Origin: Methanosarcinales archaeon | GTDB taxonomy: Bacteria; Omnitrophota; Gorgyraeia; Duberdicusellales; 4484-171 | Length of the DNA: 64,000 nt | Assembly (NCBI GenBank): GCA_048634245.1 | Contig: JAIWAR010000001.1 | Coordinates: 13,889 to 77,888 of the forward strand | Direction of reading: 5' to 3' | Part shown: one piece after another, positions 88 to 50,918 of the stretch | How positions within the stretch are numbered: position 1 is the first letter of the stretch | How the letters are laid out: each line of letters opens with the position of its first letter | Notes under the pieces: generated by a model | Told to the model about the DNA's origin: nothing | The model's database searches: none | Seen by the model: the letters and a program-made list of their open reading frames with translations, nothing else | Position numbers and translations under genes: made by a program

Positions 88-525
88 ATGAGAAAAAAAC
101 AAAAGAAGTTATCGATTATCGACTATCGACTATCGACTAAACAGGGGTTTACCTTGATTGAGCTGGTATTGGTAGTAATTATCATCGGAGCTTTGGCTGC
201 GATGATAATGCCCAGGCTTGCCGGCCGTTCAGAACAGGCGAAGGTTGCCGTCGCTAAAACGGATATCAGCGCGAATATGGCTACGGCATTAGACCTTTAT
301 GAATTGGATAATGGCCGGTATCCGGGGAATCTTCAAATGCTTTTAACCGATCCCGGCGGATTAAGCAATTGGAATGGGCCTTATATTAAAAGAAAATCTA
401 TTGATCCTTGGGGACGTGAGTATCAATATAGATATCCTTCGTCTAAAGGCAGGGATTATGATTTGTATTCGTTAGGCCCGGACGGGGTAGAAAGCGGTGA
501 TGATATTACCAATTGGAAAGATTAG
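88..525 (+). CDS. gspG: Major pseudopilin, GspG / type IV pilin-like, with an unusually long 19 aa leader
   Basis: Prepilin N-methylation motif G-FTLIELVLVVIIIGALAA with Glu at +5. C-terminal GspG-like DPWG...Y.Y region. A GGGGGAGAG ribosome-binding site precedes the ATG. Confidence 0.8.
   Translation: MRKKQKKLSIIDYRLSTKQGFTLIELVLVVIIIGALAAMIMPRLAGRSEQAKVAVAKTDISANMATALDLYELDNGRYPGNLQMLLTDPGGLSNWNGPYIKRKSIDPWGREYQYRYPSSKGRDYDLYSLGPDGVESGDDITNWKD
110..139 (+). repeat. In-frame heptanucleotide array (TATCGAC)x4 plus TA inside the gspG leader-peptide coding region
   Basis: tatcgat tatcgac tatcgac tatcgac ta. Encodes LSIIDYRLST. A 29/30-identical copy lies at 35771..35800. Confidence 0.9.
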
Positions 526-958
526 TTTCGTCGCGCGCAAACGCAATACGAAAAACGGGGCTACTTTACTTGAAGTTATGATCAGTATTGTTGTTTTATC
601 AATGGGTTTGGTTTTAATCTTACAAGGATTTCTTTATTGTCTTAATTGTCTGCGAATTTCAGAAGACAATTTAAAGGCTAGCCTGGCGGCCGGAAATAAA
701 ATGGCTCAGGCACGAATACAGGCAAAAGAGGATTGGGATACTTTTGAGAGAGGATTAAACGAACGGTTTAAGTTTGAGGGTTTAAAATGTATCTGGGATA
801 TAGAGGTAGAGCAAGTTATCTGGGATTCAGAAGAGATACCTCAAAGCTATGAATACTTAAATGAGGTTAAAACTTCCTTGTCCTGGGAAGAGGGGAGAAG
901 AAAAGGCGCGATTTTTCTTACTACGTATATGAGGAGTCCCATTGAAGTTAATCCATAG
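497..958 (+). CDS. Minor pseudopilin (GspI/GspH-like); true start probably internal
   Basis: Prepilin cleavage/methylation motif NG-ATLLEVMISIVVLSMG followed by a hydrophobic helix. Confidence 0.55.
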   Translation: MMILPIGKISFVARKRNTKNGATLLEVMISIVVLSMGLVLILQGFLYCLNCLRISEDNLKASLAAGNKMAQARIQAKEDWDTFERGLNERFKFEGLKCIWDIEVEQVIWDSEEIPQSYEYLNEVKTSLSWEEGRRKGAIFLTTYMRSPIEVNP

Positions 959-1679
959 TTTAGAGTGTAGAGCCCGTCGAGAAAGAAAACTGTCGATTAA
1001 ACGAAGTTTTACACTAATAGAACTTCTTATAAGTATAACGATTTTTGCTTTAGCCGGTACGGCTGTTTATTCGGTTTTTGCCAGCGGCATGATTGCCTGG
1101 CGTAGAGGGAATAAAGATAAGACTTATGTGCGGAAGGTAAGGATTGCGGCCGAGTCAATGGAGAGAGACCTAAAAAATACTTTTGATTTTTCTGAGATTG
1201 CATTTGAGGGTAGAGAGGATTCGGTGCGGTTCACCGCTTTAATATCTAATGAATTTGATTCGGAGGGCGATGAGAGTGAAATATATTATGAGGTAGGCAG
1301 AATGGCATACTTTTACGACAAAGAGAAAGGGGCCTTATGCAAGGAAGAAAAAAATTTTCCTGATATTAGCCGGAAGAAAGAAGATAGTAGCATTGATTGG
1401 GGAGGGGAAGAAGATGGAAAGGTAAAAATTTTATTTGATAATCTTCGTGAATTAGAATTTAGCTATTGCTATCTTGATAATGTAACTGGTAGCTATAAAT
1501 GGAAAGATGATTGGAAAAAAGAAGAGCAAGACAGTATTCCTATAGCGGTGAAAATCCTGATGGTTTTTAAAAAAGAAATGAATCAAGGAGATTTTGAAAA
1601 GTTAGTATTTATTCCAATCGGTACCGGCGAGCAAAAAATAGAGATAGGCAGCGCAGTAAGGCAGGCAGAAACTAAATAA
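942..1679 (+). CDS. Minor pseudopilin (GspJ-like)
   Basis: N-terminal RS-FTLIELLISITIFALAG prepilin motif. Its size (245 aa) and position after the G and I genes fit GspJ. Confidence 0.55.
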   Translation: MKLIHSLECRARRERKLSIKRSFTLIELLISITIFALAGTAVYSVFASGMIAWRRGNKDKTYVRKVRIAAESMERDLKNTFDFSEIAFEGREDSVRFTALISNEFDSEGDESEIYYEVGRMAYFYDKEKGALCKEEKNFPDISRKKEDSSIDWGGEEDGKVKILFDNLRELEFSYCYLDNVTGSYKWKDDWKKEEQDSIPIAVKILMVFKKEMNQGDFEKLVFIPIGTGEQKIEIGSAVRQAETK

Positions 1680-1741
1680 AATCGCCGTGCGTTAAAAATC
1701 TTTTCACGCAATATGCAATACGATATACGCAATACGGAAAA

Positions 1742-2698
1742 ATGAAGTATAGAAAGGCAAGTATATTAATTCTTACACTTTGGGTATTAAGTTTTTTAGC
1801 TGTGTTTGCCGTTGGCCTTAGCCGTAGTGTTTCGGCTCAGCTGCGTTTGGCGGCCCATTTTCAGAATAGGTTGAAGATGTATTACTTGGCAAATGCCGGC
1901 ATAGAAAGGGCAATTGTTGAATTAAGAGCGGATGAGGACCTTGGGTGTGATAATCTAAGTGAAAAATGGGCAAATAGCGAGGAATTTGAAGAGATACCTC
2001 TTGGTGACGGGTATTTAGTGTTATCCATAGAGGATGAAGCCGGTAAGATAAATATAAATAAGGTGTCGTTGTCGGTACTCAAACGCGTATTAGAAAGTAC
2101 CGGTGGAATAGAGCCGGATGCAGCGGCCGATATTGCTAATGCTATTGTTGACTGGAGGGATGCGGATATTATTATTTCAACGGGGGGCGCAGAGAATGAT
2201 TATTATGAACATCTCCAGGCGCCTTATCCATGCAAGAATGGTGCGTTCCAAATTCCTGAGGAGGTATTATTAGTTAAAGGAATGACTCCTCAGATTTATT
2301 CGAAAATTGCGGGCGTAATTACAGTTTATGGCGGCGGGAAAGTTAATGTCAATACTGTTGATGCGGGCGTATTAGGGGCTTTGGGTTTAAGCGGTGAACT
2401 TGCTAATCGAATAGTTGAATTCCGCCGGGGTGATGATAAAATTGAAGGAACCGATGATGATAATGTTTTTAAGACGCCGGCTGAGATAAGAAATGTAGGC
2501 CCTTTGTTTACAGAAGAGGCTATAGAGATAAATCGCCTTACTTCCGGCAATGTACTTACTGTAAGGTCAAATACTTTTAGGATTTTTTCCACCGGCATTA
2601 TCAAAAAGGGCAAATATGATTTGCAAAGAAGTATTACTTGTGTTGTCCAAAGATTGGCGGATAAGCCTTTTGGAAAATTATATTGGCATGAAGATTAA
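1742..2698 (+). CDS. GspK-like minor pseudopilin
   Basis: N-terminal ASILILTLWVLSFLAVFAVGL hydrophobic segment typical of GspK, at 318 aa. It follows the G/I/J-like genes. Confidence 0.6.
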   Translation: MKYRKASILILTLWVLSFLAVFAVGLSRSVSAQLRLAAHFQNRLKMYYLANAGIERAIVELRADEDLGCDNLSEKWANSEEFEEIPLGDGYLVLSIEDEAGKININKVSLSVLKRVLESTGGIEPDAAADIANAIVDWRDADIIISTGGAENDYYEHLQAPYPCKNGAFQIPEEVLLVKGMTPQIYSKIAGVITVYGGGKVNVNTVDAGVLGALGLSGELANRIVEFRRGDDKIEGTDDDNVFKTPAEIRNVGPLFTEEAIEINRLTSGNVLTVRSNTFRIFSTGIIKKGKYDLQRSITCVVQRLADKPFGKLYWHED

Positions 2699-2703
2699 AT
2701 AAG

Positions 2704-4212
2704 ATGAAATTTTTATTTAAGTTTAAACACGAACTAAAAATGATTACGGTTTTGGAGATAAGCGGCGATTGGCTGAAAATAGTGCAAGCTCAATTTTCAG
2801 CAAAGGCATGGAAAATTCATAGAGTTATAGTAGAAGATGTGGCTTGTTTTCGGGATGCTCAGGATGAGAAAATTTCCGAACGAATCAGACGCTTACTTAA
2901 GGGTTTAAAGGTAGATCCCAGTACACTTATGGTTGTTATACCTTATCAAGTTGTAGCTATTAGAAATTTAGAATTCCCTTCTACAAATCCTGATGAGATA
3001 AAAAATATGGTAGAGCTGCAGATAGGCAAGCAAACGCCTTTTTCAATAGATGAAATGATTTATGATTACACGATTTTGAATATTGACGCGGAGGGATATA
3101 GCCGGGTGATGCTGGCTGTTGTGCATCAGGATGTCATCAGGCGGTATTTTAAAATATTAAAGGCTGCGAGATTAAAGGTGGAGAGGGTGGCTTTGAGTCC
3201 TGAAGGGTTACTCGCTTGGTATCGTTTTGCTCACAAAGAAAGCGTAAGCGATGAGTCGCATGTTTTAATTGATGTAGATTGCGGCAAAAGTAATTTTGCG
3301 GTCATTTCTAAAGACAAAGTAATATTTTATAGAAACCTTTCTGCTGGAAGCGCTAAGCCTTTAAACGAGATAGAAGGTTGGCAAGAAAAGTTTGTTAACG
3401 CGGTAAAGCATTCTATATATGCTTATCAAAATGAGAGTGAAATGGCTAATAAAGAGATAGACAAAATTGTTATTACCGGGGCAGAGAGTGTTCTTGAGTC
3501 GTTAGATCGAACTGCTTTAGAAGATAAGCTCGGCTTAGATATAGAGATTATATCTCAATTCAAAGATATTTCTGACGATGCGGACTTTTTAGCTCAGGAT
3601 AATAATAATGTTGTAAAAAGCACATCCGTCGCTCCTCTTTTGGGTTTCGCGCTTGCTCCGGCTGAGCAGAAGATCAATCTTATTCCTTTGCAGCTGCGGT
3701 TAGAGAAAGGAATGAGAGAGAGAGGAAAAGATTTGTATATGTGCGGTATATATTTAGCCGTTATCCTAATAACCATTTCAAGCATTTTTTTTGGAAAGGC
3801 CTATACCAAAAAGCAATATCTCACCCGGCTAAAAGAAGAGGCGTCTAAGGTTTCCGAGAAAGTTGATAAGTTAAGCGGCATGCTGGAAGAAATAGCGGGA
3901 GTGAGAGAACGTATTTTTAAAAGAGATTTTGCGCTTAATTTCATATATGAGATACACAAAGCAATTTTTCCTGAAATTTACCTGACATTGATTAATTTTG
4001 ACGGGGGGGATCAAGTAGTTTTACGCGGAGTATCCAGTGTTATGTCCGAAGTCTTCGAATTTATTAATGCCTTAGAAAAATCGGAATGTTTCCAAAATGT
4101 TAAGACAAAGTTTGTAACTACCCGCAAAATAAGGAATAAGGATTTGACAGAATTTGAGATAGTGTGCCCTATAGAGTCAGATTTCAAAAAGGAGAGGGCA
4201 GAGGATAAATGA
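2704..4212 (+). CDS. GspL-like assembly protein (cytoplasmic actin-like PilM domain + TM + periplasmic PilN-like domain)
   Basis: ITVLEISGDWLKIV resembles the PilM/FtsA N-terminal phosphate-1 loop. A single TM helix (IYLAVILITISSIFF) sits near residue 340, followed by a periplasmic domain. Confidence 0.6.
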   Translation: MKFLFKFKHELKMITVLEISGDWLKIVQAQFSAKAWKIHRVIVEDVACFRDAQDEKISERIRRLLKGLKVDPSTLMVVIPYQVVAIRNLEFPSTNPDEIKNMVELQIGKQTPFSIDEMIYDYTILNIDAEGYSRVMLAVVHQDVIRRYFKILKAARLKVERVALSPEGLLAWYRFAHKESVSDESHVLIDVDCGKSNFAVISKDKVIFYRNLSAGSAKPLNEIEGWQEKFVNAVKHSIYAYQNESEMANKEIDKIVITGAESVLESLDRTALEDKLGLDIEIISQFKDISDDADFLAQDNNNVVKSTSVAPLLGFALAPAEQKINLIPLQLRLEKGMRERGKDLYMCGIYLAVILITISSIFFGKAYTKKQYLTRLKEEASKVSEKVDKLSGMLEEIAGVRERIFKRDFALNFIYEIHKAIFPEIYLTLINFDGGDQVVLRGVSSVMSEVFEFINALEKSECFQNVKTKFVTTRKIRNKDLTEFEIVCPIESDFKKERAEDK

Positions 4213-8556: not shown

Positions 8557-9502
8557 GAAGATAAAGGACGGCAAGAGTTTTTTAATTACCGCCCATATGA
8601 ATTTGGAGGGTGACGCATTGGGTTCGGAATTAGCCACCTATGCTTTGCTTAAGAAGCTTAAGAAAAGAGTGGTTATTTACAATAACGATCCTACGCCCGG
8701 TATTTATAAGTTTTTCCCTTTTAGCGGAGTTATAAAAAATACTTTAAAAGGAGAAAAGTTTGATGTAGCTTTGGTCTTAGATTGCTCTGATGCCTCCCGG
8801 GCCGGTAAGGTTAAAGATAGCCTGAGTAAAATTGACTGTGTTATCAATATCGACCATCACATTAGTAATACGTATTTTGGTGATATAAACTGGGTAGAAC
8901 CGACTTCATCCTCAGCAGCCCAGATGATTTATTCGCTTTGTGAGAAATTTAAGATTATGGATAAGAATATCGCTCTTTGCCTGTATACGGGGATTTTTAC
9001 CGATACAGGTAATTTTACTTACGCTAATACTGATAGCCAGACTCATAAAGTAGTCGCGAGTTTGATGAAATATGATCTTCAGCCGCATAAACTTTATGAT
9101 AGTATACATAGTTTATGTAAACCTGTTGACTTAAACTGTATTGGTAAAATTATTTCTTCTTTAAAGTACGATTCTTGCAGAAAAATATCCTGGGCAGCTA
9201 TAACTAACTGGCAGGATAAAGAGTATGACCTTACCGAAGTGGTTTTTTCTATAATGAGGTTGCTAAAAGATCCCGAAGTTTTTCTTTTTTTTAAACAAGT
9301 TGATAAGTGTAAGACCAGGGTCAACTTCCGTTCCCGGGGCCGGATTGATGTAAACAGAATCGCGAAATTCTTCGGCGGCGGCGGGCATAAAAATGCAAGC
9401 GGAGCTACCATTGAAGAACCCCTGAAGAAAGCTGAGAAAATGGTAATCTCTTTTATAAGAAGGCGCACCAACGGTATAAGAAAAGAGAAGGGGAGAGGAT
9501 GA
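8516..9502 (+). CDS. nrnA: DHH-family phosphoesterase (NrnA-like oligoribonuclease / pAp phosphatase)
   Basis: DHH motif (NIDHHISN) and GGGH motif. Located between rbfA and truB. Confidence 0.7.
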   Translation: MRKMRKRLLKRIVEKIKDGKSFLITAHMNLEGDALGSELATYALLKKLKKRVVIYNNDPTPGIYKFFPFSGVIKNTLKGEKFDVALVLDCSDASRAGKVKDSLSKIDCVINIDHHISNTYFGDINWVEPTSSSAAQMIYSLCEKFKIMDKNIALCLYTGIFTDTGNFTYANTDSQTHKVVASLMKYDLQPHKLYDSIHSLCKPVDLNCIGKIISSLKYDSCRKISWAAITNWQDKEYDLTEVVFSIMRLLKDPEVFLFFKQVDKCKTRVNFRSRGRIDVNRIAKFFGGGGHKNASGATIEEPLKKAEKMVISFIRRRTNGIRKEKGRG

Positions 9503-10167
9503 AGAGGGAAGGGATTATTCTTGTAGATAAACCTAAGGGGATTACCTCGCATGATGTAGTTGATATTGTGCGGAGGCGCCTTAAGATTAAAAAAGTAGGC
9601 CATGCAGGGACTCTTGATCCATTAGCTCAAGGGTTATTAATTATTCTGGTGGGTAAGTGTACGAAGCTATTTTCTAAATTTTCCGGTTTAGACAAAGAAT
9701 ATTCCGGAGTATTAAAGCTGGGGGAAGTTACGACCACAGGAGATTCTCAAGGGGAAGTTACCCAAAAGAAGGAGTGGGCTCAGATTAGCGAGGATAGGAT
9801 AAGGGAGGCATTTTCTTTGTTCATCGGCGAGACAAAGCAGGTTCCTCCTATGGTTAGCGCTTTAAGAGTAGGAGGTAAGAGGCTTTATAAGTTAGCCCGT
9901 CGCGGTATCGTGGTAGAAAGAACTCCTCGAAAAATAAAAATATATTCTTTGGAGATATTAAAGATAGATCTTCCTTTTGTTGAGTTTCGTCTCCATTGTT
10001 CTAAGGGGACATATGTAAGAAAGTTAGCTGAGGATATCGGTGAGAAATTGGGGTGCGGAGCTCATATGGTGAAAATATTACGCCTGAGCATAGGTTCTTT
10101 TGAACTGGGCAAGGCAATAGCTTTGGATGATATCAATGAAAGTCATCTCCAGCAGATTACCTTTTAA
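9499..10167 (+). CDS. truB: tRNA pseudouridine(55) synthase
   Basis: KPKGITSHDVVDIVRRRLKIKKVGHAGTLDPLAQGLL catalytic motif. Confidence 0.9.
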   Translation: MKREGIILVDKPKGITSHDVVDIVRRRLKIKKVGHAGTLDPLAQGLLIILVGKCTKLFSKFSGLDKEYSGVLKLGEVTTTGDSQGEVTQKKEWAQISEDRIREAFSLFIGETKQVPPMVSALRVGGKRLYKLARRGIVVERTPRKIKIYSLEILKIDLPFVEFRLHCSKGTYVRKLAEDIGEKLGCGAHMVKILRLSIGSFELGKAIALDDINESHLQQITF

Positions 10168-34780: not shown

Positions 34781-35225
34781 GCTTAAAGTAATTGGGGTAG
34801 CGGCTTTACCCATTTTTGAGCTGCGCGGTGCTATTCCTCTGGGAGTGTCTTTAGGTATGCCCTTAGGACGTATCTACTTTTTGTCTCTTTTAGGTAATTT
34901 AATTCCCGTTCTACCTTTATTATTACTCTTTAAATATTTTTTTCATCATTTACAGAATATAAAATTCGTCGGTAAGTTTTTTGAGTGGTGGTTTTACAGG
35001 GTAGAGAAAAAGTCAAAGCTTGTTGAGCGTTGGGGTTTTTGGGGTTTAGTCCTTTTTGTGGCAATACCAATGCCGGTAACCGGAGCCTGGACCGGAACGG
35101 CAGCGGCAACGTTATTTGAGCTGTCAACGAGAAAAGCCTTTTTGGCGATCTTAATAGGTGTTGCTATCGCCGGGATAATAGTAAGTTTAGTGGCTAATTG
35201 CGCGGGGGCATTGATAGCCGGGTGA
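34758..35225 (+). CDS. Small polytopic membrane protein (COG2426-like)
   Basis: Four predicted TM helices. PIFELRGAIPLG motif. Confidence 0.5.
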   Translation: MSMVGVNELKVIGVAALPIFELRGAIPLGVSLGMPLGRIYFLSLLGNLIPVLPLLLLFKYFFHHLQNIKFVGKFFEWWFYRVEKKSKLVERWGFWGLVLFVAIPMPVTGAWTGTAAATLFELSTRKAFLAILIGVAIAGIIVSLVANCAGALIAG

Positions 35226-36073
35226 ATTGTAAAATGGCAGAAATAGTAGAGAAAAGAATCTTAGTCGATAGTTTAGGGGTAAGAATTATCCAATTGAAGG
35301 TAAGAGCTCCTTCTATTGCTGAAAAAGCAAAACCAGGCCAGTTTGTGGTTCTGATGACGGGCGAGGAAGGAGAAAGGATACCGTTAACTGTGGTTGAGGG
35401 GGACACAAAGAAGGGTGTTATTACCTTAATTGTTCAAGAAGCGGGGTTAACTACCAAGCTTTTAGGCGCTTTAGAGGTGGGAAAATCCCTTTACGCTTTA
35501 GTCGGCCCCCTAGGACATGCCACTGAGATGAAAAAATACGGAAAAGTAATTTTGGTGGGAGGCGGAGTTGGCATTGCCGAGATTTATCCCGTAGCAAAAG
35601 GGCTGAATAAAGCTGGAAATCACATAACTACTATATTAGGAGCAAGGACAAAAGATCTGTTAATTCTGGAAGAAGAGTTAGGGGCGATATCCGATCAGTT
35701 GCTTATTGCTACCGATGATGGTTCTTATGGGCAAAAAGGCTTTACCACTGATATCCTGAAGAATCTTCTCTATCGACTATCGACTATCGACTATCGACTA
35801 ATTTACGCTGTCGGCCCTATTCCCATGATGAGAAATGTCTCTTTAGTTACTAAAGATTCAGGGATAAAAACTTTGGTATCTTTAAATTCTTTAATGGTTG
35901 ATGCTACCGGTATGTGCGGAAGCTGCCGGGTTACTGTGGGCGGTGAGGTTAAATTTACTTGCGTAGACGGTCCGGAATTTGACGCTTCTTTAGTTGATTG
36001 GGATGAATTAACCAAGAGAAATAAAATATACGCTGAAAAAGAAAAACATATCTGTAATCTTTATAAATTATGA
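35198..36073 (+). CDS. nfnA: NfnA / sulfide dehydrogenase beta-like (PyrK-family FAD/[2Fe-2S] subunit); start probably at MAEIVEK (35233)
   Basis: FNR-like fold with a C-terminal CGSC...C cluster motif. Paired with the downstream GltD-like gene. Contains the heptamer array at 35771..35800. Confidence 0.75.
   Translation: MRGGIDSRVNCKMAEIVEKRILVDSLGVRIIQLKVRAPSIAEKAKPGQFVVLMTGEEGERIPLTVVEGDTKKGVITLIVQEAGLTTKLLGALEVGKSLYALVGPLGHATEMKKYGKVILVGGGVGIAEIYPVAKGLNKAGNHITTILGARTKDLLILEEELGAISDQLLIATDDGSYGQKGFTTDILKNLLYRLSTIDYRLIYAVGPIPMMRNVSLVTKDSGIKTLVSLNSLMVDATGMCGSCRVTVGGEVKFTCVDGPEFDASLVDWDELTKRNKIYAEKEKHICNLYKL
35771..35800 (+). repeat. In-frame heptanucleotide array (TATCGAC)x4 plus TA inside nfnA
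   Basis: 29/30 identical to 110..139. Encodes YRLSTIDYRL in the same codon phase. Confidence 0.9.
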
Positions 36074-37491
36074 GAAAAGAACCGGTAAAAGTAAAAGAAG
36101 TAGATCCGGGCCTTCGGGTGGGCAATTTTGACGAGGTTGTCTTAGGCTACAGCGAGGAAGATGCTCTTATCGAAGCTAACCGGTGTATTCAGTGCAAGAA
36201 TCCTACTTGTATTGCCGGTTGTCCCGTGGCTATTGATATAAAAAAATTTATCTATCAAATTACTCAAAAAGACTATACCGGTGCTTACTTTACAATTAGA
36301 GAAAGGAATGATTTTCCTTCTATTTGCGGAAGGATTTGTCCGGCTGAATATCAATGCCGTAAAGCCTGTGTATTTAGCAAAAAGGGCCAGCCTTTTGCCT
36401 CTAAAGAAGCAATAAATATTCATTTGCTAGAGCGGTTTATTGGCGATTATGGGATAAAGCATTGTAGCCAGGCTCAACACTCAACGACTAACGCTCAACA
36501 TAACAAGAAAGTAGCAATCGTAGGTTCCGGGCCGGCTGGTTTGTGTGTAGCCGGAGAGCTAGGCCGTCAAGGTATAAAATCAATTATTTTTGAAGGACTG
36601 CATAAGACCGGAGGAGTTCTCAGATATGGTATACCGCCTTTTAGGCTGCCCCGGGATATTTTGGATTTTGAGATAGATTATCTTAAAAAGCTAGGGGTTG
36701 AATTTGCGCTTAATGTTATTATAGGGAGGACGAAGACTTTGGACGAACTCTTCTTGGATAATTTTTCAGCTGTGTTTCTAGGCTTGGGTGCCGGGGTGCC
36801 GTCTTTTTTAAAGATAAAGGGCGAGAACTTATGTAATGTTTATTCGGCTAATGAGTTTTTAACCCGCAATAATCTTATGTCGGCATATAAATTTCCTCAA
36901 TTTCATACTCCGATTAATGTCGGTGAGCATATAATTGTTATTGGCGGAGGCAATACCGCCATGGATGCGGCCAGAGTTGCTCTTCGTTTGCAGAAGATAA
37001 GAGGAATTAAACCGAATACTACAGTTTTTTACCGGCGTACTGAGACGGAGATGCCGGCAAGGCGCTTGGAAATAGAGCATGCTAAGGAAGAAGGTATAAA
37101 CTTTAAATTTTTAGTTCAGCCAAGAGGGTTTATTGGCGATGAGTCGGGATTTGTAAGGAAAATAGAGTGCTTAGAGTGCTATTTGGGCGAAGAAGATTCG
37201 TCGGGGAGAAGAAGGCCTGTGCCTATTGAGGGAAGTGAATTTATAAAAGATTGCGATGTGGCTATTGTAGCAGTTGGTTTGGGTGCAAATACTATTCTTA
37301 CCGGTGTTACTCCTCAATTGAAGGTTGATAAATATTCGGATTTAATAGTTGATTCTAAGACTATGCAGACTTCGCTTAAAGGTGTTTATGCCGGGGGAGA
37401 TATAGTTGGTGGTGAAGGCACTGTTATTGAAGCAATGGGCATGGCTAAGATTGCAGCCAAAAGTATTATCGGTTATCTTTTAAATAAATAA
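36070..37491 (+). CDS. nfnB: NfnB / glutamate synthase small-chain-like NADPH oxidoreductase (2x[4Fe-4S], FAD)
   Basis: CIQCKNPTCIAGCP ferredoxin-like cysteines. VAIVGSGPAGL dinucleotide-binding motif. GltD/SudA family. Confidence 0.8.
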   Translation: MRKEPVKVKEVDPGLRVGNFDEVVLGYSEEDALIEANRCIQCKNPTCIAGCPVAIDIKKFIYQITQKDYTGAYFTIRERNDFPSICGRICPAEYQCRKACVFSKKGQPFASKEAINIHLLERFIGDYGIKHCSQAQHSTTNAQHNKKVAIVGSGPAGLCVAGELGRQGIKSIIFEGLHKTGGVLRYGIPPFRLPRDILDFEIDYLKKLGVEFALNVIIGRTKTLDELFLDNFSAVFLGLGAGVPSFLKIKGENLCNVYSANEFLTRNNLMSAYKFPQFHTPINVGEHIIVIGGGNTAMDAARVALRLQKIRGIKPNTTVFYRRTETEMPARRLEIEHAKEEGINFKFLVQPRGFIGDESGFVRKIECLECYLGEEDSSGRRRPVPIEGSEFIKDCDVAIVAVGLGANTILTGVTPQLKVDKYSDLIVDSKTMQTSLKGVYAGGDIVGGEGTVIEAMGMAKIAAKSIIGYLLNK

Positions 37492-37511
37492 TAAAATAAA
37501 AGGTCTCCTTT

Positions 37512-39047
37512 TTAGAGCAGGGGGAGGTATTTTTTAAGTTCGTGCTGAGTGATCTGGATTCGATACTCTTCCCACTCTTTCTTTTTATTGAATAGAAATC
37601 TGCTAAAGATATGTTCACCAAGAGTATCACGTACAAACTTGCTATTTTCAGTTTCCGTGATAGCTTCAAGAAGATTCCCCGGTAAAGACGTAAGCCCTCT
37701 TCTTTCTCTTTCTTCCATAGCCATATGGTAGATATTAGGTTCAACCGGCGGGGTAAGCTTATATTTTTTTTCTATGCCTTCTAGCCCGGCAGCCAGCATT
37801 ACAGCAAAGGCAAGATAGGGGTTGCAAGCCGGATCCGGACATCTTAGTTCTACCCGGGTTGCTTTTTCATTTCCCGGCCGATATGAGGGAACGCGAAGCA
37901 GGGCAGTGCGGTTTTTTTGAGCCCAAGAAGCGTATACCGGAGCTTCAAAACCCGTAACCAGCCGTTTGTAGGAGTTTACCCACTGAGCAGTCAAAGAACA
38001 AATTTCCCGGGCATGTTTTAACTGTCCGGCAATAAAGCTTTTAGCAATTGTTGATAAGTGATGTTTGTCTTTTTTGTCGAAAAAAGCATTTTGCTTTTTC
38101 GTAAATAGAGATTGATGGACATGCATTCCTGAACCATTCACTCCAAAGAGGGGTTTTGGCATAAAAGTAGCGTATACGCCATTCTGCTGAGCGATTTCTT
38201 TAATTACGTATTTACTGGTTATTACAGCATCAGCCATGGTAAGGGCATCGTTATATTTAAGGTCGATTTCATGCTGGGATGGCGCAACTTCGTGGTGGCT
38301 TGCTTCCATAGGTATGCCTAGCTGTTCTAAGGTTCTTACGGTTCTATTTCTTAAGGTATTGGCTAAATCATTAGGTATTAATTCAAAATAAGAACCTTCA
38401 TCAATAATTTCCGGTTTTTTGTCAGATTTAAAATAAAAATATTCTATTTCCGGCCCCACATAGAATGTAAGGCCCATTTTTTCAGTCCTTGCCATTATCC
38501 GTTTTAAAACATGGCGGGGGTCACCGGCATAAGGAGTGTGGTCAGGATTGAGTATGTCGCAGAACATTCTGACAATTGGGTCTGTTTCTGTTGTCCAGGG
38601 TAATATTTTAAAAGTAGTTGGGTCCGGTAAGGCAATGATATCAGATTCTTGAGCTTCGGCAAACCCGGTAACTGAAGAACCATCAAAGCCTTTTCCGTGT
38701 TCTAAGGCATCCTTTAATTCCCCTTGAGTGATAGAGACGCACTTTAGAGTTCCTAAGATGTCTGCGAACCAAAGCTGTATTATTTTTATGTCGCTTCTAT
38801 ACACTTTCTCCAAGACTTCTTTTATAGCTTCTTTTCTGGGTTTTTTATCCGAAAGAACAAGCTGTGTTTGAGAGTATTTTTCTGTTTTGATTTCTCTTTC
38901 TGAATGAACCTGGTTTTTAGGTATTATGTATCGGTTTCCTACTTTTTCAGCATACAGATTTCCGTTTTTTATACGCTCTACAACAGCTTGACGGGAAATC
39001 CTTAAGATCTTTGCGGCTTGGGCCGGGCTTAAATATTCTTGTTCCAT
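37512..39047 (-). CDS. glnA: Glutamine synthetase catalytic protein fused to an N-terminal excisionase/MerR-type HTH
   Basis: N-terminus LSPAQAAKILRISRQAVVERIKNGNL (HTH). GS signature KPLFGVNGSGMHVHQSLF and a beta-grasp region. It is the only minus-strand gene in the window. Confidence 0.85.
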   Translation of the reverse strand: MEQEYLSPAQAAKILRISRQAVVERIKNGNLYAEKVGNRYIIPKNQVHSEREIKTEKYSQTQLVLSDKKPRKEAIKEVLEKVYRSDIKIIQLWFADILGTLKCVSITQGELKDALEHGKGFDGSSVTGFAEAQESDIIALPDPTTFKILPWTTETDPIVRMFCDILNPDHTPYAGDPRHVLKRIMARTEKMGLTFYVGPEIEYFYFKSDKKPEIIDEGSYFELIPNDLANTLRNRTVRTLEQLGIPMEASHHEVAPSQHEIDLKYNDALTMADAVITSKYVIKEIAQQNGVYATFMPKPLFGVNGSGMHVHQSLFTKKQNAFFDKKDKHHLSTIAKSFIAGQLKHAREICSLTAQWVNSYKRLVTGFEAPVYASWAQKNRTALLRVPSYRPGNEKATRVELRCPDPACNPYLAFAVMLAAGLEGIEKKYKLTPPVEPNIYHMAMEERERRGLTSLPGNLLEAITETENSKFVRDTLGEHIFSRFLFNKKKEWEEYRIQITQHELKKYLPLL

Positions 39048-39101
39048 CTCTTAATCTCCTTTGTAAAGTAAAATATAGTAATACATTACAAGTGTAAAGC
39101 A

Positions 39102-39120
39102 TAATTTTACATTTGTCAAG
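39102..39120. promoter_or_regulatory. Inverted repeat TGTAAA-N7-TTTACA in the glnA/carB divergent region
   Basis: Resembles the TnrA/GlnR-type TGTNA-N7-TNACA nitrogen operators. Further TGTAAA/TTTACA copies lie at 39062, 39146, and the palindrome GTAAT-AC-ATTAC at 39078..39089. Confidence 0.4.
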
Positions 39121-39198
39121 TATTTTTTATAGTTTTTTTACATTTTGCTAAAATAGAAGCAAATATTAGCCTTTTTAAGGGTTTTTAAGGAAAAACTG

Positions 39199-39266: not shown

Positions 39267-39295
39267 CTTGACTGAATGGTAAAAATGTTGGATAA
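39267..39295 (+). promoter_or_regulatory. Putative carB promoter (TTGACT - 17 nt - GATAAT)
   Basis: -35 element at 39267..39272, -10 element at 39290..39295. Confidence 0.4.
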
Positions 39296-39315
39296 TCATT
39301 TCCAATGTGGATAAA

Positions 39316-39365
39316 GGCGTCCTTTCTGCTTACAATGAAGTAGAAGGGGCGCTTTTTCTGTTTTT
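39316..39365 (+). terminator. Terminator-like hairpin plus T-run inside the carB 5' leader (candidate attenuator)
   Basis: GGCGTCCTTTCT - 14 nt loop - AGAAGGGGCGCT (a 12 bp stem including 3 G-U pairs), followed by TTTTTCTGTTTTT. Lies ~35 nt before the carB ribosome-binding site. Confidence 0.45.
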
Positions 39366-39397: not shown

Positions 39398-42300
39398 ATG
39401 CCGCGATATGAAGATATTAAGAAAATTTTAATTATTGGTTCTGGGCCGATAATAATCGGACAAGCTTGCGAGTTTGATTATTCCGGCACCCAGGCCTGCA
39501 AAGCTTTGAAAGAGGAAGGGTATGAGGTTGTTTTGGTTAATTCCAATCCTGCCACCATTATGACTGACCCGGGTATGGCTGATAAAACTTATATTGAGCC
39601 GCTTACTATCGAAAGCTTAGAAATGATTATTGAGAAAGAGAGGCCTGATGCGCTTCTTCCTAATTTAGGCGGCCAGACCGCCCTTAATCTAACTTCTGGC
39701 CTTCACAAGGCGGGAATTTTAGAGAAATACGGAGTTAAAATTATTGGCGTTGCGGTTGATGCTATTGAACGCGGAGAAGATCGTCTTGCTTTTAAAGAGA
39801 CAATGAATGAACTAAATATCCCTCTTCCGAAATCTGAAATCAGCCATTCTGTTGAGGAGGCTGAAGCTATAGCGCAAGATATAGGGTATCCGGTAGTCTT
39901 GCGGCCGGCTTATACAATGGGAGGAACCGGCGGAGGAATTGTTTATAACGTAGAAGAGTTAAGAACCATTGCGACTAGAGGATTGGCTGTAAGCCTTGTT
40001 CATCAAATTTTAGTTGAAGAAGCGGTTATAGGGTGGGAAGAGTTAGAGTTGGAAGTTGTACGGGATCACAAGAATCAGAAGATTACCGTATGCTTTATTG
40101 AGAATATTGATGCTATGGGTGTGCATACCGGGGATAGCTTTTGTTCGGCCCCTATGCTTACTGTAAAAGAAGAGATACAGAAGAAATTGCAAGAATATTC
40201 TTACCGAATAGTTGACGCAATCGGCGTTGTCGGCGGAACAAATGTTCAATTTGCCCACAATCCTAAGGATGATAGGTTGGTAGTTATAGAGATTAATCCC
40301 AGGACATCCCGTTCTTCAGCCCTTGCCTCAAAAGCAACCGGTTTTCCTATAGCGCGTATTTCGGCAAAGTTAGCTGTTGGGATATCAATGGATGAAATTC
40401 CTTATTGGAAGGAAGGAACGCTGGAGAAGTATGAACCCGGTGGTGATTATGTTGTTATTAAATTTGCCCGCTGGGCGTTTGAGAAGTTTCCTAAAGCAAA
40501 GGATGTTTTGGGAACACAAATGAAGGCTGTTGGCGAGGTAATGAGTATTGGAAAAACATTTAAGGAAGCATTTCAGAAGGCCATTCGTTCTTTGGAGATA
40601 GGCCGGTATGGTTTAGGGGTTGAAAAATTCAAAGCTCTTTCTCTGGGAAAATTAAAAGAAAGGTTAAGCGTACCTTCAAGTGAGCGGATATTCTTGATGT
40701 ATGAAGCCTTGCGTAAAGGTGTTTCTGTTGATGAGTTACACAAAGTTACCCATATTCATCCTTGGTTTATTCAGGAGATGAAGGATCTTGTTGATTTTGA
40801 AGAAGAGATAGCTAAAGATGGATGGAAGGGGTTATCTGATAAAAGGTTAATCAAGGCAAAGGAGTGGGGATTTTCAGATAAGTATTTAGCCGGTTTTTTT
40901 AAGATAAAAGAGAAAGAGGTAAGAGAAAGGAGGACAGGGCTTGGAAAGATTTCTCACTACAATGCGGTTCCGGTTAGCGGGGTAAAAAATGCGGCTTATT
41001 ATTACTCTAGCTATAGTGGAGAAGATGAGGTGCCGGTATCACGGAATAAGAAAATATTAATTTTGGGCGGCGGGCCTAACCGAATTGGCCAGGGTATAGA
41101 GTTTGATTATACTTGTGTCCACGCGGCCTTTGCTTTACGGGATGAGGGGTATGAATCAGTCATGGTAAATTGTAATCCTGAGACGGTATCTACCGATTAT
41201 GATACTTCCAGCAAACTTTACTTTGAACCTCTGACAGTAGAAGATGTGTTGACTATTTACGAAAAAGAAAAACCTGACGGGGTAATTGTCCAATTTGGCG
41301 GACAAACGCCTTTAAATATTGCTCAAGAGCTAGAAGATAACGGTGTAAAAATTTTAGGCACAACGCCGAAGAATATTCGTTTAGCAGAAGACAGAGAATA
41401 TTTTAAGGAGAGGATGATTGCTCTTGATATTCTTCAGCCTGAGAGCGGCATAGCGCGGTCATTGGATGAGGCTGTAGAAATCGCCGGGGAAATCGGTTAC
41501 CCTCTTATGGTACGTCCTTCTTTTGTTTTAGGGGGGAGGGGCATGGAAATTATTTATAATGAGGGAATGCTGCGAAAATATGCCGAACGCGCCATTAAGG
41601 TAAATCCGGAATTCCCCATGCTTATTGATAGATTTCTCGAGCATGCCATTGAGGCGGAAGTCGATGCTCTTTCTGATGGAGAGGATGTACACGTTGCTGC
41701 CGTGATGGAACATATAGAGTTTGCCGGGGTTCATTCCGGTGATTCTGCTTGTGCTATTCCGACCAGGACCATAAAGCAAAAGCATCTAAAGATTATTGAG
41801 GAATATACTGTTAAAATAGCCAAAGAGCTTAGGGTTGCCGGGCTTATGAATATCCAGTATGCTATATGCGATGATAAAGTTTATGTATTGGAAGCTAATC
41901 CCAGAGCATCCCGGACAGTGCCTTTGGTTTCAAAAATTATGGGGCTTTCTATGGCACGCATAGCAACGCAGTTGATGCTTGGTAAAAAAATAAAAGATTT
42001 CCCGGAGCTTAAAAAACCTCGTAAGATTCCTTATGTAGGCGTTAAAGAAGCAGTTTTTCCTTTTAATATGTTTCCTGAAGTTGACCCCTTGTTGGGGCCC
42101 GAGATGAGGGCTACGGGAGAGGTTATGGGAATTGCTGATACTTTTGGGCTCGCTTTTTATAAAGCTCAGGTAGCCGCAAATTTAAAGCTTCCCCTGGAGG
42201 GAAATATCCTGTTTACCGTAACTGATAAAGATAAACCTGAAGTACTTCATGTAGCTAAAGGGTTTAATAAGCTGGGATTTAATATTTACGCTACAGAAGG

Positions 42301-42604
42301 AACCAGCCGTTTTCTTAAAGAAAACGGAATAAGCAATATAGAGGTAAAAAAACTTCACCAGGGAAGACCTAATCTTGCTGATATGATTAAAAACGGAGAT
42401 ATTCATCTTGTGATAAATACGCCTATTGGAAGTAATAGTAAATATGATGATAGCTATATTCGTATTATGGCTATACAGCAGAAGATTCCTTATATAACAT
42501 CCATGGCTGCCGCTCTTGCCAGTCTTGAGGGCGTGGAGGCTCTTAGAAAGGAAAAAACTTTACCAAAGTCTCTTCAGGAATATCATAAAGAGATTAAGGA
42601 TTAA
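39398..42604 (+). CDS. carB: Carbamoyl-phosphate synthase large subunit
   Basis: Two ATP-grasp halves and an MGS-like C-terminal domain over 1068 aa. No carA is adjacent. Confidence 0.95.
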   Translation: MPRYEDIKKILIIGSGPIIIGQACEFDYSGTQACKALKEEGYEVVLVNSNPATIMTDPGMADKTYIEPLTIESLEMIIEKERPDALLPNLGGQTALNLTSGLHKAGILEKYGVKIIGVAVDAIERGEDRLAFKETMNELNIPLPKSEISHSVEEAEAIAQDIGYPVVLRPAYTMGGTGGGIVYNVEELRTIATRGLAVSLVHQILVEEAVIGWEELELEVVRDHKNQKITVCFIENIDAMGVHTGDSFCSAPMLTVKEEIQKKLQEYSYRIVDAIGVVGGTNVQFAHNPKDDRLVVIEINPRTSRSSALASKATGFPIARISAKLAVGISMDEIPYWKEGTLEKYEPGGDYVVIKFARWAFEKFPKAKDVLGTQMKAVGEVMSIGKTFKEAFQKAIRSLEIGRYGLGVEKFKALSLGKLKERLSVPSSERIFLMYEALRKGVSVDELHKVTHIHPWFIQEMKDLVDFEEEIAKDGWKGLSDKRLIKAKEWGFSDKYLAGFFKIKEKEVRERRTGLGKISHYNAVPVSGVKNAAYYYSSYSGEDEVPVSRNKKILILGGGPNRIGQGIEFDYTCVHAAFALRDEGYESVMVNCNPETVSTDYDTSSKLYFEPLTVEDVLTIYEKEKPDGVIVQFGGQTPLNIAQELEDNGVKILGTTPKNIRLAEDREYFKERMIALDILQPESGIARSLDEAVEIAGEIGYPLMVRPSFVLGGRGMEIIYNEGMLRKYAERAIKVNPEFPMLIDRFLEHAIEAEVDALSDGEDVHVAAVMEHIEFAGVHSGDSACAIPTRTIKQKHLKIIEEYTVKIAKELRVAGLMNIQYAICDDKVYVLEANPRASRTVPLVSKIMGLSMARIATQLMLGKKIKDFPELKKPRKIPYVGVKEAVFPFNMFPEVDPLLGPEMRATGEVMGIADTFGLAFYKAQVAANLKLPLEGNILFTVTDKDKPEVLHVAKGFNKLGFNIYATEGTSRFLKENGISNIEVKKLHQGRPNLADMIKNGDIHLVINTPIGSNSKYDDSYIRIMAIQQKIPYITSMAAALASLEGVEALRKEKTLPKSLQEYHKEIKD

Positions 42605-42616
42605 GGAGGAATAGTA

Positions 42617-44134
42617 ATGGCTAGACGGATAGGTTTTGATAATCAAAAGTACCTTAACGAACAAACAGAAGCTATACTGGAGAGAGTAGGGAGATTCAAC
42701 AATAAGCTTTACCTTGAATTCGGGGGTAAGATTATTTTTGACTATCATGCTTCAAGAGTCCTGCCGGGTTTTAATCACAATGTGAAGATGATGCTTTTAC
42801 AAAAACTAAAGGATAAAGCTGATATTATCCTTTGTATATATGCCGGTGATATTGCCCGAAGAAAAGTTAGGGCGGATTTCGGAATTACTTATGATGCAGA
42901 TACTTTAAAACTGATTGATGATTTGCGGAGCTGGGGCATTAATATGGCCGCGGTGGTAATAACCCGTTTTGATAACCAGCCGGCAGCTGAAATATTTAAA
43001 AACAAATTAGAACGCAGAGGCGTAAAGGTTTATACTCATTCTTTTACAAAAGGCTATCCTACTGATGTGGATTTGATTGTAAGCGATGAAGGTTATGGGA
43101 TAAATACTTACATCGAAACTGAAAAGCCTTTAGTTGTAGTTACCGGCCCCGGCCCGGGAAGCGGAAAACTTGCTACTTGCCTTTGCCAGCTTTATCATGA
43201 ATATAAAAGAGGAGTAAAGGCGGGGTATGCAAAGTTTGAAACTTTTCCTATTTGGAATATCCCTCTTAAGCACCCGGTTAATATAGCTTATGAAGCGGCT
43301 ACAGCTGATTTAAGAGATTTTAATCTTGTTGATCCTTTTCATCTGGAAACTTACCAGAAAACGGCAATTAATTATAACCGGGATGTTGAGGCTTTTCCTC
43401 TTGTTGAACGTATATTGGGAAAAATTACCGGGATTGGGAAAATGTATAAATCTCCTACGGATATGGGGGTGAATAAGGCCGGTTTTGGGATTATAGATGA
43501 TGATGTAGTAAAAGATGCCGCAAAACAGGAGATCATTCGCAGGTTTTTTAGGTATAAGTGTGAATACGCAATGGGTCTTTGTGATAAAGGGACAGTCCAG
43601 CGGGTAGAGCTGATTATGAAAGAACTCGGCCTTCAATCTGAAGATCGCTGCGTGGTCAAACCGGCCAATGATGCTCTTTGTGAGGCTGAGAAAAAAAATA
43701 AAGGGCATGAAGGTGTTTTTTGCGGTGCTGCCATAGAGCTTGAAAACAGTTCTGTAATTACAGGAAAGAACTCAGACCTTATGCATGCAGCAGCTAGTCT
43801 TGTGTTTAATGCTATAAAGAAGTTAGCCGGGATACCGGACAAGATTCATCTTTTGTCTCCGGCCATAATAGAGTCAATAGGAAACTTGAAGAAAAATATT
43901 TCAGGTGTAAAAACAATAAGTTTGGATTTAGAAGAGGCTTTGATCGCTTTAAGTATCAGTGCTACTACAAATCCAACAGCCCAATTGGCTATGGAGAAAC
44001 TTAAAGAACTTGGGGGGTGTGAGGTTCATACTACTCATATGCCTACTTCCGGTGATGAAGCCGGCCTGCGTAAGCTGGGAGTCAATCTTACTAGTGCGCC
44101 GAATTTTTCTTCCAAAAGTCTTTTTATAGTATAA
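42617..44134 (+). CDS. Conserved hypothetical protein (505 aa) with a glycine-rich GPGPGSGK loop
   Basis: No confident family assignment by eye. Tightly linked (12 nt gap) to carB. Confidence 0.5.
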
Positions 44135-50843: not shown

Positions 50844-50918
50844 TGCCCGGTGGTGTAATCGGTAACACATCAGGTTTTGGATCTGAGTTTCCTGGTTCGA
50901 GTCCAGGCCGGGCAACCA
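50844..50918 (+). tRNA. tRNA-Gln (anticodon UUG), CCA encoded
   Basis: Manual fold: acceptor stem TGCCCGG/CCGGGCA, D-arm GTGT/ACAC, anticodon stem TCAGG/TCTGA with loop TTTTGGA, T-arm CCTGG-TTCGAGT-CCAGG, discriminator A, then CCA. Confidence 0.85.

Follow-up and report, generated by a model that had tools for sequence, protein, structure and literature searches.

Can a glutamine synthetase (GS), the central nitrogen-assimilating enzyme, act as the regulator of its own gene? The question is raised by a single gene in the stretch of Omnitrophota DNA analysed here (64 kb, called the window below), which encodes a GS joined at its N-terminus to an HTH domain. To our knowledge, the known schemes of GS control all use separate partners: adenylyltransferase/PII/NtrBC, GlnR/TnrA, inactivating factors or sRNAs. 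We call the gene and its product HTH-GS.

Architecture and translation of HTH-GS

The gene and its parts lie in the window as follows.

37512..39047 (-), HTH-GS gene, 511 amino acids and a stop codon (ORF list, Pfam and NCBIfam domains, full-length homologues with 68-99% identity)
38907..39047 (-), HTH-bearing N-terminal segment
38841..38906 (-), flexible linker, approximately residues 48-69, rich in K, S and T, variable in length and sequence (AlphaFold2 pLDDT, alignment indels)
37515..38840 (-), type I-alpha GS body, residues 70-511, with the beta-grasp domain at residues 86-168 and the catalytic domain at residues 175-507 (TIGR00653, PDB matches, invariant catalytic residues)

The 511-residue product starts with MEQEYLSPAQAAKILRISRQAVVERIKNGNLYAEKVG and also includes KPLFGVNGSGMHVHQSLF. 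The first-pass annotation had described it as an HTH of about 50 residues fused to a complete GS, and both profile scores and conservation bore this out. Pfam HTH_17 (PF12728; cut-off 27 bits) matched residues 5-47 with 32.5 bits in the full-length protein and with 36.6 bits when the N-terminus was searched alone. The corresponding scores for the NCBIfam model TIGR01764 'excise' (cut-off 28.8 bits) were 31.9 and 35.8 bits, so the N-terminus scores as an HTH above the curated cut-offs of both collections. The rest of the protein matched Gln-synt_N (PF03951; residues 86-168, 90 bits) and Gln-synt_C (PF00120; residues 175-507, 427.6 bits).

The HTH domain, an excisionase-type winged helix, spans residues 4-47. 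In alignments of the fused sequences, residues 1-43 were strongly conserved, with L15, R19, Q20, A21, I26, A33, G37, Y40 and I41 invariant. There follow about 20-35 residues of variable length and sequence, in which no motif able to dock in the GS active site was conserved; conservation returns at the N-terminal helix of the GS, with its invariant IQLWF. The AlphaFold2 monomer model agreed with this division. It gave a compact MerR-like winged helix of one strand, two helices and a two-strand wing, in that order (pLDDT 77-85 in the full-length protein and 89 alone), then a disordered linker at residues 49-68 (pLDDT 24-37) and a GS body that begins with a helix at residues 68-84. Foldseek neighbours of the HTH model included RacA, Xis, RdfS and BldC, and the wHTH domains of BirA and RbkR were weaker matches.

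A Shine-Dalgarno sequence, AAGGAG, lies at 39061-39056, 8 nt ahead of the ATG at 39047, and the relatives have one similarly placed before the start of the HTH. The HTH is thus translated as part of the enzyme. The gene had also been called the only one on the minus strand, and among the minus-strand ORFs of 150 amino acids or more in the window it is indeed the only credible one; the other ORF of that size, at 9094-9603, sits beneath plus-strand ORFs. Genes and GC skew in the window otherwise run in one direction.

The convergent neighbour of HTH-GS is an NfnAB/SudAB-like oxidoreductase pair (35198-37491). On the divergent side are carB, a gene for a DUF1846 protein, a purF-like amidotransferase gene and hisG. 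One further feature was found at the 3' end.

37503..37528 (+), hairpin resembling a terminator, where the 3' end of HTH-GS faces the convergent nfnB-like gene (pattern scan only)

Class and catalytic integrity of the GS body

The NCBIfam model for type I GlnA (TIGR00653) scored 501.2 bits, above its equivalog cut-off of 429.15. GSI-alpha structures from archaea and Gram-positive bacteria (8ufj, 8tfb, 7tfa, 4lnf), the B. subtilis GS among them, aligned with the GS body in a single stretch and scored 424-482 bits. GSI-beta structures of the E. coli/Salmonella/Mycobacterium type (1f1h, 2bvc and others) gave about 250 bits in two stretches, and the GSI-beta insertion of about 25 residues is absent from HTH-GS. 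Two other classes were considered and rejected. The score for gamma-glutamylputrescine/polyamine synthetase (GlnA3-4-like; NF045547, GGputSyn) was 283 bits against a cut-off of 650, and that for GS-III (TIGR03105) was 315 bits against 469.6. The expectation that the architecture would be neither that of a canonical GlnA nor that of GS-III therefore held: the body is of the GSI-alpha type and carries a fused HTH. From these profile and structure matches, we assign HTH-GS to GSI-alpha and to the HTH_17/excisionase domain family. The best PDB matches of the body were GSI-alpha dodecamers, and HTH-GS is expected to form a dodecamer with six subunits per ring.

Fifteen residues were invariant in 74 fused sequences. 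D122, S125, E200, E202, E253, E260, G305 and H309 are, as we take it from the surrounding motifs, the counterparts of Salmonella D50, S53, E129, E131, E212, E220, G265 and H269. H311, R362, E368, R380, R385, E400 and R402 presumably correspond, again by motif, to Salmonella H271, R321, E327, R339, R344, E357 and R359. Because all catalytic residues were invariant in these sequences, we read HTH-GS as a catalytically competent enzyme and not as a pseudo-enzyme. None of the eight species-representative genomes with the fusion, which are incomplete MAGs, had a second GSI-alpha locus among the best 80 matches, which hints, weakly, that HTH-GS may be the main GS of these Omnitrophota.

Distribution and origin of the fusion

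A small HTH gene might be joined to glnA by a frameshift or a missed stop codon, in assembly or in annotation. We therefore looked at how widely the fusion occurs and whether its two parts occur separately. A search of about 5.8 billion proteins was carried out and the best 120 clusters were examined. They showed 68-99% identity at 100% coverage, and more than 115 had the same fusion. Nearly all were 495-530 amino acids long with PF12728, PF03951 and PF00120. Those with a named source came from Candidatus Omnitrophota/Omnitrophica, and public annotation calls these proteins only 'type I glutamate--ammonia ligase' or 'glutamine synthetase beta-grasp domain-containing protein'. At the DNA level, the fusion was present at 66 independent genomic or metagenomic loci.

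In contigs from one genome per species, the best 80 loci fell into two sets: eight (L001-L008) matched from residue 1, and the other 72 from about residue 76. An HMM of the HTH matched these eight and the window, each time in frame with the GS. Around the 72 unfused GS genes, out to 5 kb, it found no copy of the HTH. A scan of metagenomes with the HTH alone gave 59 further loci, in which every complete HTH ORF was a GS fusion of 499-523 amino acids. There were three exceptions in the metagenome set, namely a stop codon in the linker, a frameshifted contig and an unrelated weak match. A stand-alone form of this HTH was found neither in the species-representative contigs nor in the metagenome scan. 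Relatives with the HTH as a separate upstream gene, which had been named as a sign of artefact, were thus not seen; the HTH occurred only in frame with a GS. When the HTH profile was searched against representatives clustered at 50% identity, the fusions were absent and tandem-HTH proteins and contig-end fragments were returned; in that set the fusions are probably represented by unfused GS cluster heads.

Two of the exceptions are what an artefact would look like. L090 has one in-frame stop codon in the linker, and L116 has multiple frameshifts across the contig. Against this, more than 115 protein clusters have the ORF without interruption, as do about 60 independent contigs from many studies; the twin contig of L090 (L092) was intact, and no stand-alone homologue of the HTH adjoined any GS examined. 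The same in-frame fusion across loci and the lack of a separate HTH exclude frameshift or mis-assembly as its source, and we consider the chance of an artefact negligible.

In a neighbour-joining (NJ) tree of the GS body, 117 fused sequences formed one clade with no unfused member inside. The unfused L009-L011 were its sister group, and the unfused Omnitrophota sequence L013 came next. Since the fused sequences are monophyletic in this tree (NJ, without support values), it indicates that the fusion arose once.

The promoter of HTH-GS in the window

The following elements were found upstream of the gene.

39106..39119 (-), box 1, TTGACAAATGTAAA, an exact match to TTKACANNTGTMAA; its left half is the -35 TTGACA (39119-39114)
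39085..39098 (-), box 2, TTTACACTTGTAAT, a match with one mismatch; it includes the -10 TACACT (39096-39091)
39137..39142 (-), left-hand outer half-site TGTAAA, 17 nt ahead of box 1
39062..39067 (-), right-hand outer half-site TTTACA, directly next to the Shine-Dalgarno AAGGAG and 17 nt past box 2

The promoter is near consensus, with TTGACA and TACACT separated by a 17-nt spacer (10/12 in a promoter scan). Only three sites with at most one mismatch to the box were present in the whole window, where 0.87 were expected by chance, and two of the three were in this promoter. No known riboswitch or leader RNA was found in the 5' region of the gene; Rfam gave only a tRNA elsewhere.

Conservation of the boxes among fused genes

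We defined the box as the 14-bp near-palindrome TTKACA-NN-TGTMAA and allowed up to two mismatches. Among 61 distinct promoters of fused genes, 59 had at least one box and 56 had at least two, and the DNA flanking the boxes in these 61 non-identical upstream regions could not be aligned. The upstream inverted repeats that the first-pass annotation had mentioned are therefore real, and strongly conserved among the fused genes. The usual arrangement is two boxes, one on the -35 and the other over or beside the -10. In all 54 promoters with two boxes, a TAnnnT -10 was found 16-17 nt past the TTGACA of box 1. Box 2 holds the -10 in the layout with 21 bp between the boxes (16 promoters) and abuts it in the layout with 26-28 bp (36 promoters). 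One locus, L008, has the perfect palindrome TTGACAATTGTCAA.

The 21-bp spacing was common to the 17 unique promoters of the subclade that includes the HTH-GS of the window. In this subclade, 11 of the 17 promoters have TGTAAA ahead of box 1 at a distance of 16-18 nt, and 15 of the 17 have TTTACA past box 2 at a distance of 17-18 nt, as against 0.25% of shuffled flanks in each case. Its promoters thus show six half-sites forming a dyad of about 81 bp. Two departures from the usual arrangement were seen: L088 has a full set of boxes farther upstream, at -238, -217 and -185, and the fused lineage L006/L124 is without boxes.

Outside the fused genes, the boxes were rare. Within a 260-nt window, a match was found at only 4 of 64 unfused GS genes, each time a single one with two mismatches, and the closest unfused sister genes had none. 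In 500,657 nt of fused loci, the 140 nt ahead of the start of HTH-GS accounted for 228 strand-counts of matches with at most one mismatch and all other positions for 12, and 8 of these 12 sat farther upstream in the same intergenic region. Neither the window nor the flanks, about 500 kb in all, contained additional target genes or boxes. The comparison shows the boxes to be associated exclusively with the fusion, on the core promoter. In the window the divergent neighbour is carB, but this arrangement was found in only six nearest relatives, and we rejected general co-regulation of carB for this reason. The boxes are conserved whatever the neighbour, so their general target would be glnA itself.

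Several features limit how closely the boxes can be read. Box 1 has the -35 hexamer as its left half, and its conservation must partly reflect promoter function. With only 8 bp from one half-site centre to the next, there is little room for two HTHs on the same face of the DNA, and for some boxes a reading as direct repeats, TGACAA-n-TGACAA, is just as good. As the spacing between boxes differs by subclade (21 versus 26-28 bp), there is no single rigid geometry. Linker length was considered as a ruler for operator spacing and showed no relation to it (35-49 residues in both layouts).

A self-repressing enzyme as the main reading

Our reading of these observations as a whole, to which we give a probability of about 0.6, is that a competent GSI-alpha enzyme with a tethered wHTH represses its own gene through the boxes in its promoter. 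Given an operator footprint on the promoters of fused genes only, it is likely that the GS itself binds DNA. We infer that the boxes are recognised by the fused HTH, with repression as the outcome and oligomerisation as the source of the affinity. The steps would be as follows. A disordered tether of 20-35 residues links the N-terminus of the GS to a minimal MerR-like winged helix of the BldC/Xis type. Domains of this type have no dimerisation or effector module of their own, and multivalency would come from the GS oligomer. The 14-bp palindromes over the -35 and the -10/+1 of the enzyme's own sigma-70-type promoter would be bound by tethered HTHs in pairs; in the subclade of the window, the two outer half-sites would bring the total to six over about 81 bp. 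Bound HTH-GS would occlude RNA polymerase, so that the enzyme represses its own synthesis and expression falls while assembled GS builds up.

Box and HTH are connected by correlation, and the boxes could instead be bound by an unlinked regulator. They might then be the operator of a separate nitrogen regulator, and the fused HTH might serve in non-specific tethering to the nucleoid, in architectural binding as with RacA or Xis, or in protein-protein contact. It fits this explanation that RacA, Xis and RdfS, among the structural neighbours, are architectural proteins and not classical regulators. We nevertheless think it unlikely. The boxes track the fusion across the clade amid otherwise unalignable flanks, and they are absent from the closest unfused sisters and from 60 of the 64 unfused GS promoters. 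In addition, R19, Q20 and A21 of the recognition helix are invariant together with the core of the box, as expected for a cognate pair.

The position of the boxes also bears on the direction of control. MerR proteins bind in the spacer between the -35 and the -10, the region in which box 1 is placed, and the HTH has a MerR-like fold, so that HTH-GS might activate its own promoter by MerR-style remodelling. MerR activation, however, works on promoters with over-long spacers of 19-20 bp. Here all 54 promoters have a consensus TTGACA and a spacer of optimal length, 16-17 bp. The -10/+1 is covered by box 2, and the domain is without the coiled coil and the effector domain of MerR. Activation of this kind is very unlikely on these grounds, and repression remains our preferred reading.

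Does the state of the enzyme gate DNA binding?

With the same architecture and operator, the ligand or assembly state of the GS might gate the binding of self-repressing HTH-GS to DNA, as a single-chain version of GS-GlnR. Such gating would refine the self-repression proposed above and is compatible with it. Candidate gates are the glutamine-inhibited state, the nucleotide-bound state and a 2-oxoglutarate-dependent oligomerisation that alters the presentation of the HTHs. In its fullest form, the GS oligomer would be both nitrogen sensor and repressor, with the six wHTHs of a hexameric ring on the six-half-site operator of about 81 bp, switched by ligand or assembly.

In Bacillus, feedback-inhibited GS activates GlnR, and Arg62 of the GS stabilises the glutamine-inhibited state and contacts GlnR (PMC9249791). 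The HTH-GS clade differs from the Bacillus GS in having Glu at this position. The same Glu was found in the unfused sisters L009-L011 and in L013, so it is no adaptation to the fusion; other clade-specific GS residues, likewise present in these unfused sequences, were rejected as fusion adaptations too. Also against gating, the linker has no conserved motif for docking as the C-tail of GlnR does, and no sequence feature marks a state-dependent switch. We hold the gated form, including the ring on the operator, as a tentative possibility, and simple concentration-dependent autorepression fits the data equally well as state-gated binding.

Comparison with known systems

The nearest functional parallel is the Bacillus system of GS with GlnR or TnrA. 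There, a separate MerR-like wHTH regulator docks its C-tail into feedback-inhibited GS, while in HTH-GS the DNA-binding domain is covalently fused at the N-terminus; the proposed circuit resembles Bacillus GS and GlnR collapsed into one polypeptide. The operators differ: that of TnrA/GlnR is the 17-bp TGTNA-N7-TNACA, whereas the HTH-GS box is the 14-bp TTKACA-N2-TGTMAA. A reading as TGTAAA-N7-TTTACA is available in the 21-bp subclade only and exceeds the TnrA box by 2 bp. When the HTH profile was aligned by hhalign with an approximate B. subtilis TnrA sequence, the probability was 0.3%. The C-tail motif of the GlnR type, XG(E/D)XSRF (PMC9249791), is absent from HTH-GS. We rejected membership in the GlnR/TnrA family, as there was no Pfam match to MerR or MerR_1 at E<=1 and the tail, topology and operator spacing are different; only the fold class is common.

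The DNA-binding domain itself is closest to BldC, Xis and RdfS (HTH_17/TIGR01764). These are stand-alone proteins of about 55-70 amino acids (about 60-70 in the BldC family) that self-multimerise on DNA, whereas the domain of HTH-GS is attached through its linker to a large oligomeric enzyme. The sites of BldC are direct repeats, which it occupies head-to-tail, in contrast to the mainly inverted repeats of the HTH-GS sites. Strict membership in the BldC family was rejected: the fold matches, yet the domain is fused to a 440-residue enzyme and its sites are mostly inverted repeats. Unlike the excisionases Xis and RdfS, HTH-GS has no recombinase partner and no mobile-element context.

In general design, HTH-GS is like BirA, PutA, NadR and the archaeal RbkR (PMC5397151), which also combine a metabolic enzyme and an N-terminal HTH or wHTH in one chain. 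In both, the promoter of the protein's own pathway gene carries the operator, or, in HTH-GS, operator-like boxes. They differ in the enzyme and in its assembly, a dimer as against the expected 12-mer. For BirA the switch is known (biotinyl-AMP as co-repressor, with dimerisation), while the sequence of HTH-GS shows no switch feature. Trigger enzymes with a fused DNA-binding domain are a functional class and not a homologous family. On comparative evidence, HTH-GS would count among them, as an enzyme with a DNA-binding domain and operator-like boxes on its own promoter. The GSI-beta GlnA of E. coli and Salmonella has the same reaction chemistry and catalytic residues as HTH-GS, but it is controlled by adenylylation and NtrBC and has no counterpart of the fused domain.

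Implications

Our literature searches found no published description of the HTH-GS fusion or of its operator. We regard the conserved pair of boxes on the promoters of fused genes, as recognised by sequence comparison, as a new result. If the main reading is true, no known nitrogen-control circuit would be as compact as a GS that binds DNA at its own promoter, and GS would join the short list of trigger enzymes with fused domains, BirA, PutA, NadR and RbkR. Experimentally, it would provide a clean case in which to study how a 12-mer enzyme turns its ligand state or its oligomeric state into DNA binding. The organisms are uncultured, but the operator is short, well defined and conserved, so the hypothesis can be tested with recombinant protein. 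HTH-GS would be an example of how candidate phyla with reduced genomes economise on regulators. Should the gated form also hold, Omnitrophota with small genomes would control glnA, and possibly a wider regulon, without a dedicated transcription factor.

Strand bias and the carB leader

Strand bias in the window was extreme. HTH-GS, the winged-helix (HTH_17)–glutamine synthetase (GS) fusion gene, was the only inverted gene. The plus strand held every other credible ORF with a length of 150 aa or more, 53 in total, as well as the sole tRNA (50844-50915), and GC skew was positive along the entire window (1-64000). The features on the divergent side of HTH-GS were the following.

39313-39356, plus strand, strong terminator-like hairpin in the carB leader (19 pairs, then a T-run)
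39398-42604, plus strand, carB, 3' of the leader hairpin
42617-44134, plus strand, DUF1846 protein (554 bits), flanked by carB and a gene for a purF-like amidotransferase

Upstream of the leader hairpin, the plus strand has promoter-like sites at 39268-39296 and 39106-39133. The hairpin could be an attenuator of carB. Its sequence is kept in L001, another locus with the fusion, and it matched no Rfam family. Several related loci (L001, L003, L092, L095, L096 and L099) likewise have a DUF1846 gene in the neighbourhood of HTH-GS.

Variant arrangements and related elements

Another GS gene showed a regulator-GS arrangement different from HTH-GS. In JASEHU010000298.1 (locus L024), the ORF that includes a type I-alpha GS (GSI-alpha) at 731-2119 continues in-frame at its N-terminal side for some 260 aa, and this extension scores for GAF (83 bits) and ANTAR (76 bits). 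The ORF may encode an RNA-binding antiterminator fused to GS. The arrangement could instead be an artefact, because it is known from a single 3-kb contig.

In one fused locus (L090, FUWD013093270.1), a single in-frame stop within the linker (..KQKRT*RSNKK.., around locus position 1297) parts the HTH from GS, while HTH-GS is uninterrupted in the near-identical locus L092. The stop may be an error of sequencing, or L090 may hold a pseudogene or a variant that is naturally split.

Two archaeal loci with unfused GS genes, L043 and L052, from Methanomicrobiales / Methanophagales MAGs, had in common a palindrome, GTTACAGCCGTAAC, about 115 nt upstream of GS. This nitrogen-operator-like element differs from the HTH-GS promoter boxes and is possibly archaeal.

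Among the matches to the HTH profile, clusters P0121-P0146 included a protein family built of 3-8 tandem HTH_17 units, the unit being related to the GS-fused HTH. Pfam found 4 and 7 HTH_17 stretches in such array proteins (P0122, 239 aa; P0121, 563 aa). These covalent tandem arrays are a putative alternative route to multivalency for the same minimal wHTH as in HTH-GS.

GS paralogues and putative feedback residues

JBHIAL010000056.1 (locus L009) carries two adjacent, divergent GSI-alpha paralogues.

368-1696, minus strand, GSI-alpha
2228-3553, plus strand, GSI-alpha

One is canonical (GY..IEESD type); the other, of the GFAEAEESD type, falls in the group of unfused enzymes that is sister to the HTH-GS clade. 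This side-by-side occurrence suggests that the lineage leading to the fusion started out as a second GS copy.

In the alignment, fused enzymes and their unfused sister group alike had Glu at the position of Arg62 of B. subtilis GS (GFAEAQESD versus GFVRIEESD) and Asn at that of Arg170; the corresponding residues of HTH-GS in the window are E131 (codon around 38655-38657) and N234. Because Arg62 is linked to feedback inhibition by glutamine and to the binding of GlnR (PMC9249791), the GS lineage of HTH-GS and the unfused sisters may have feedback properties unlike those of B. subtilis GS.
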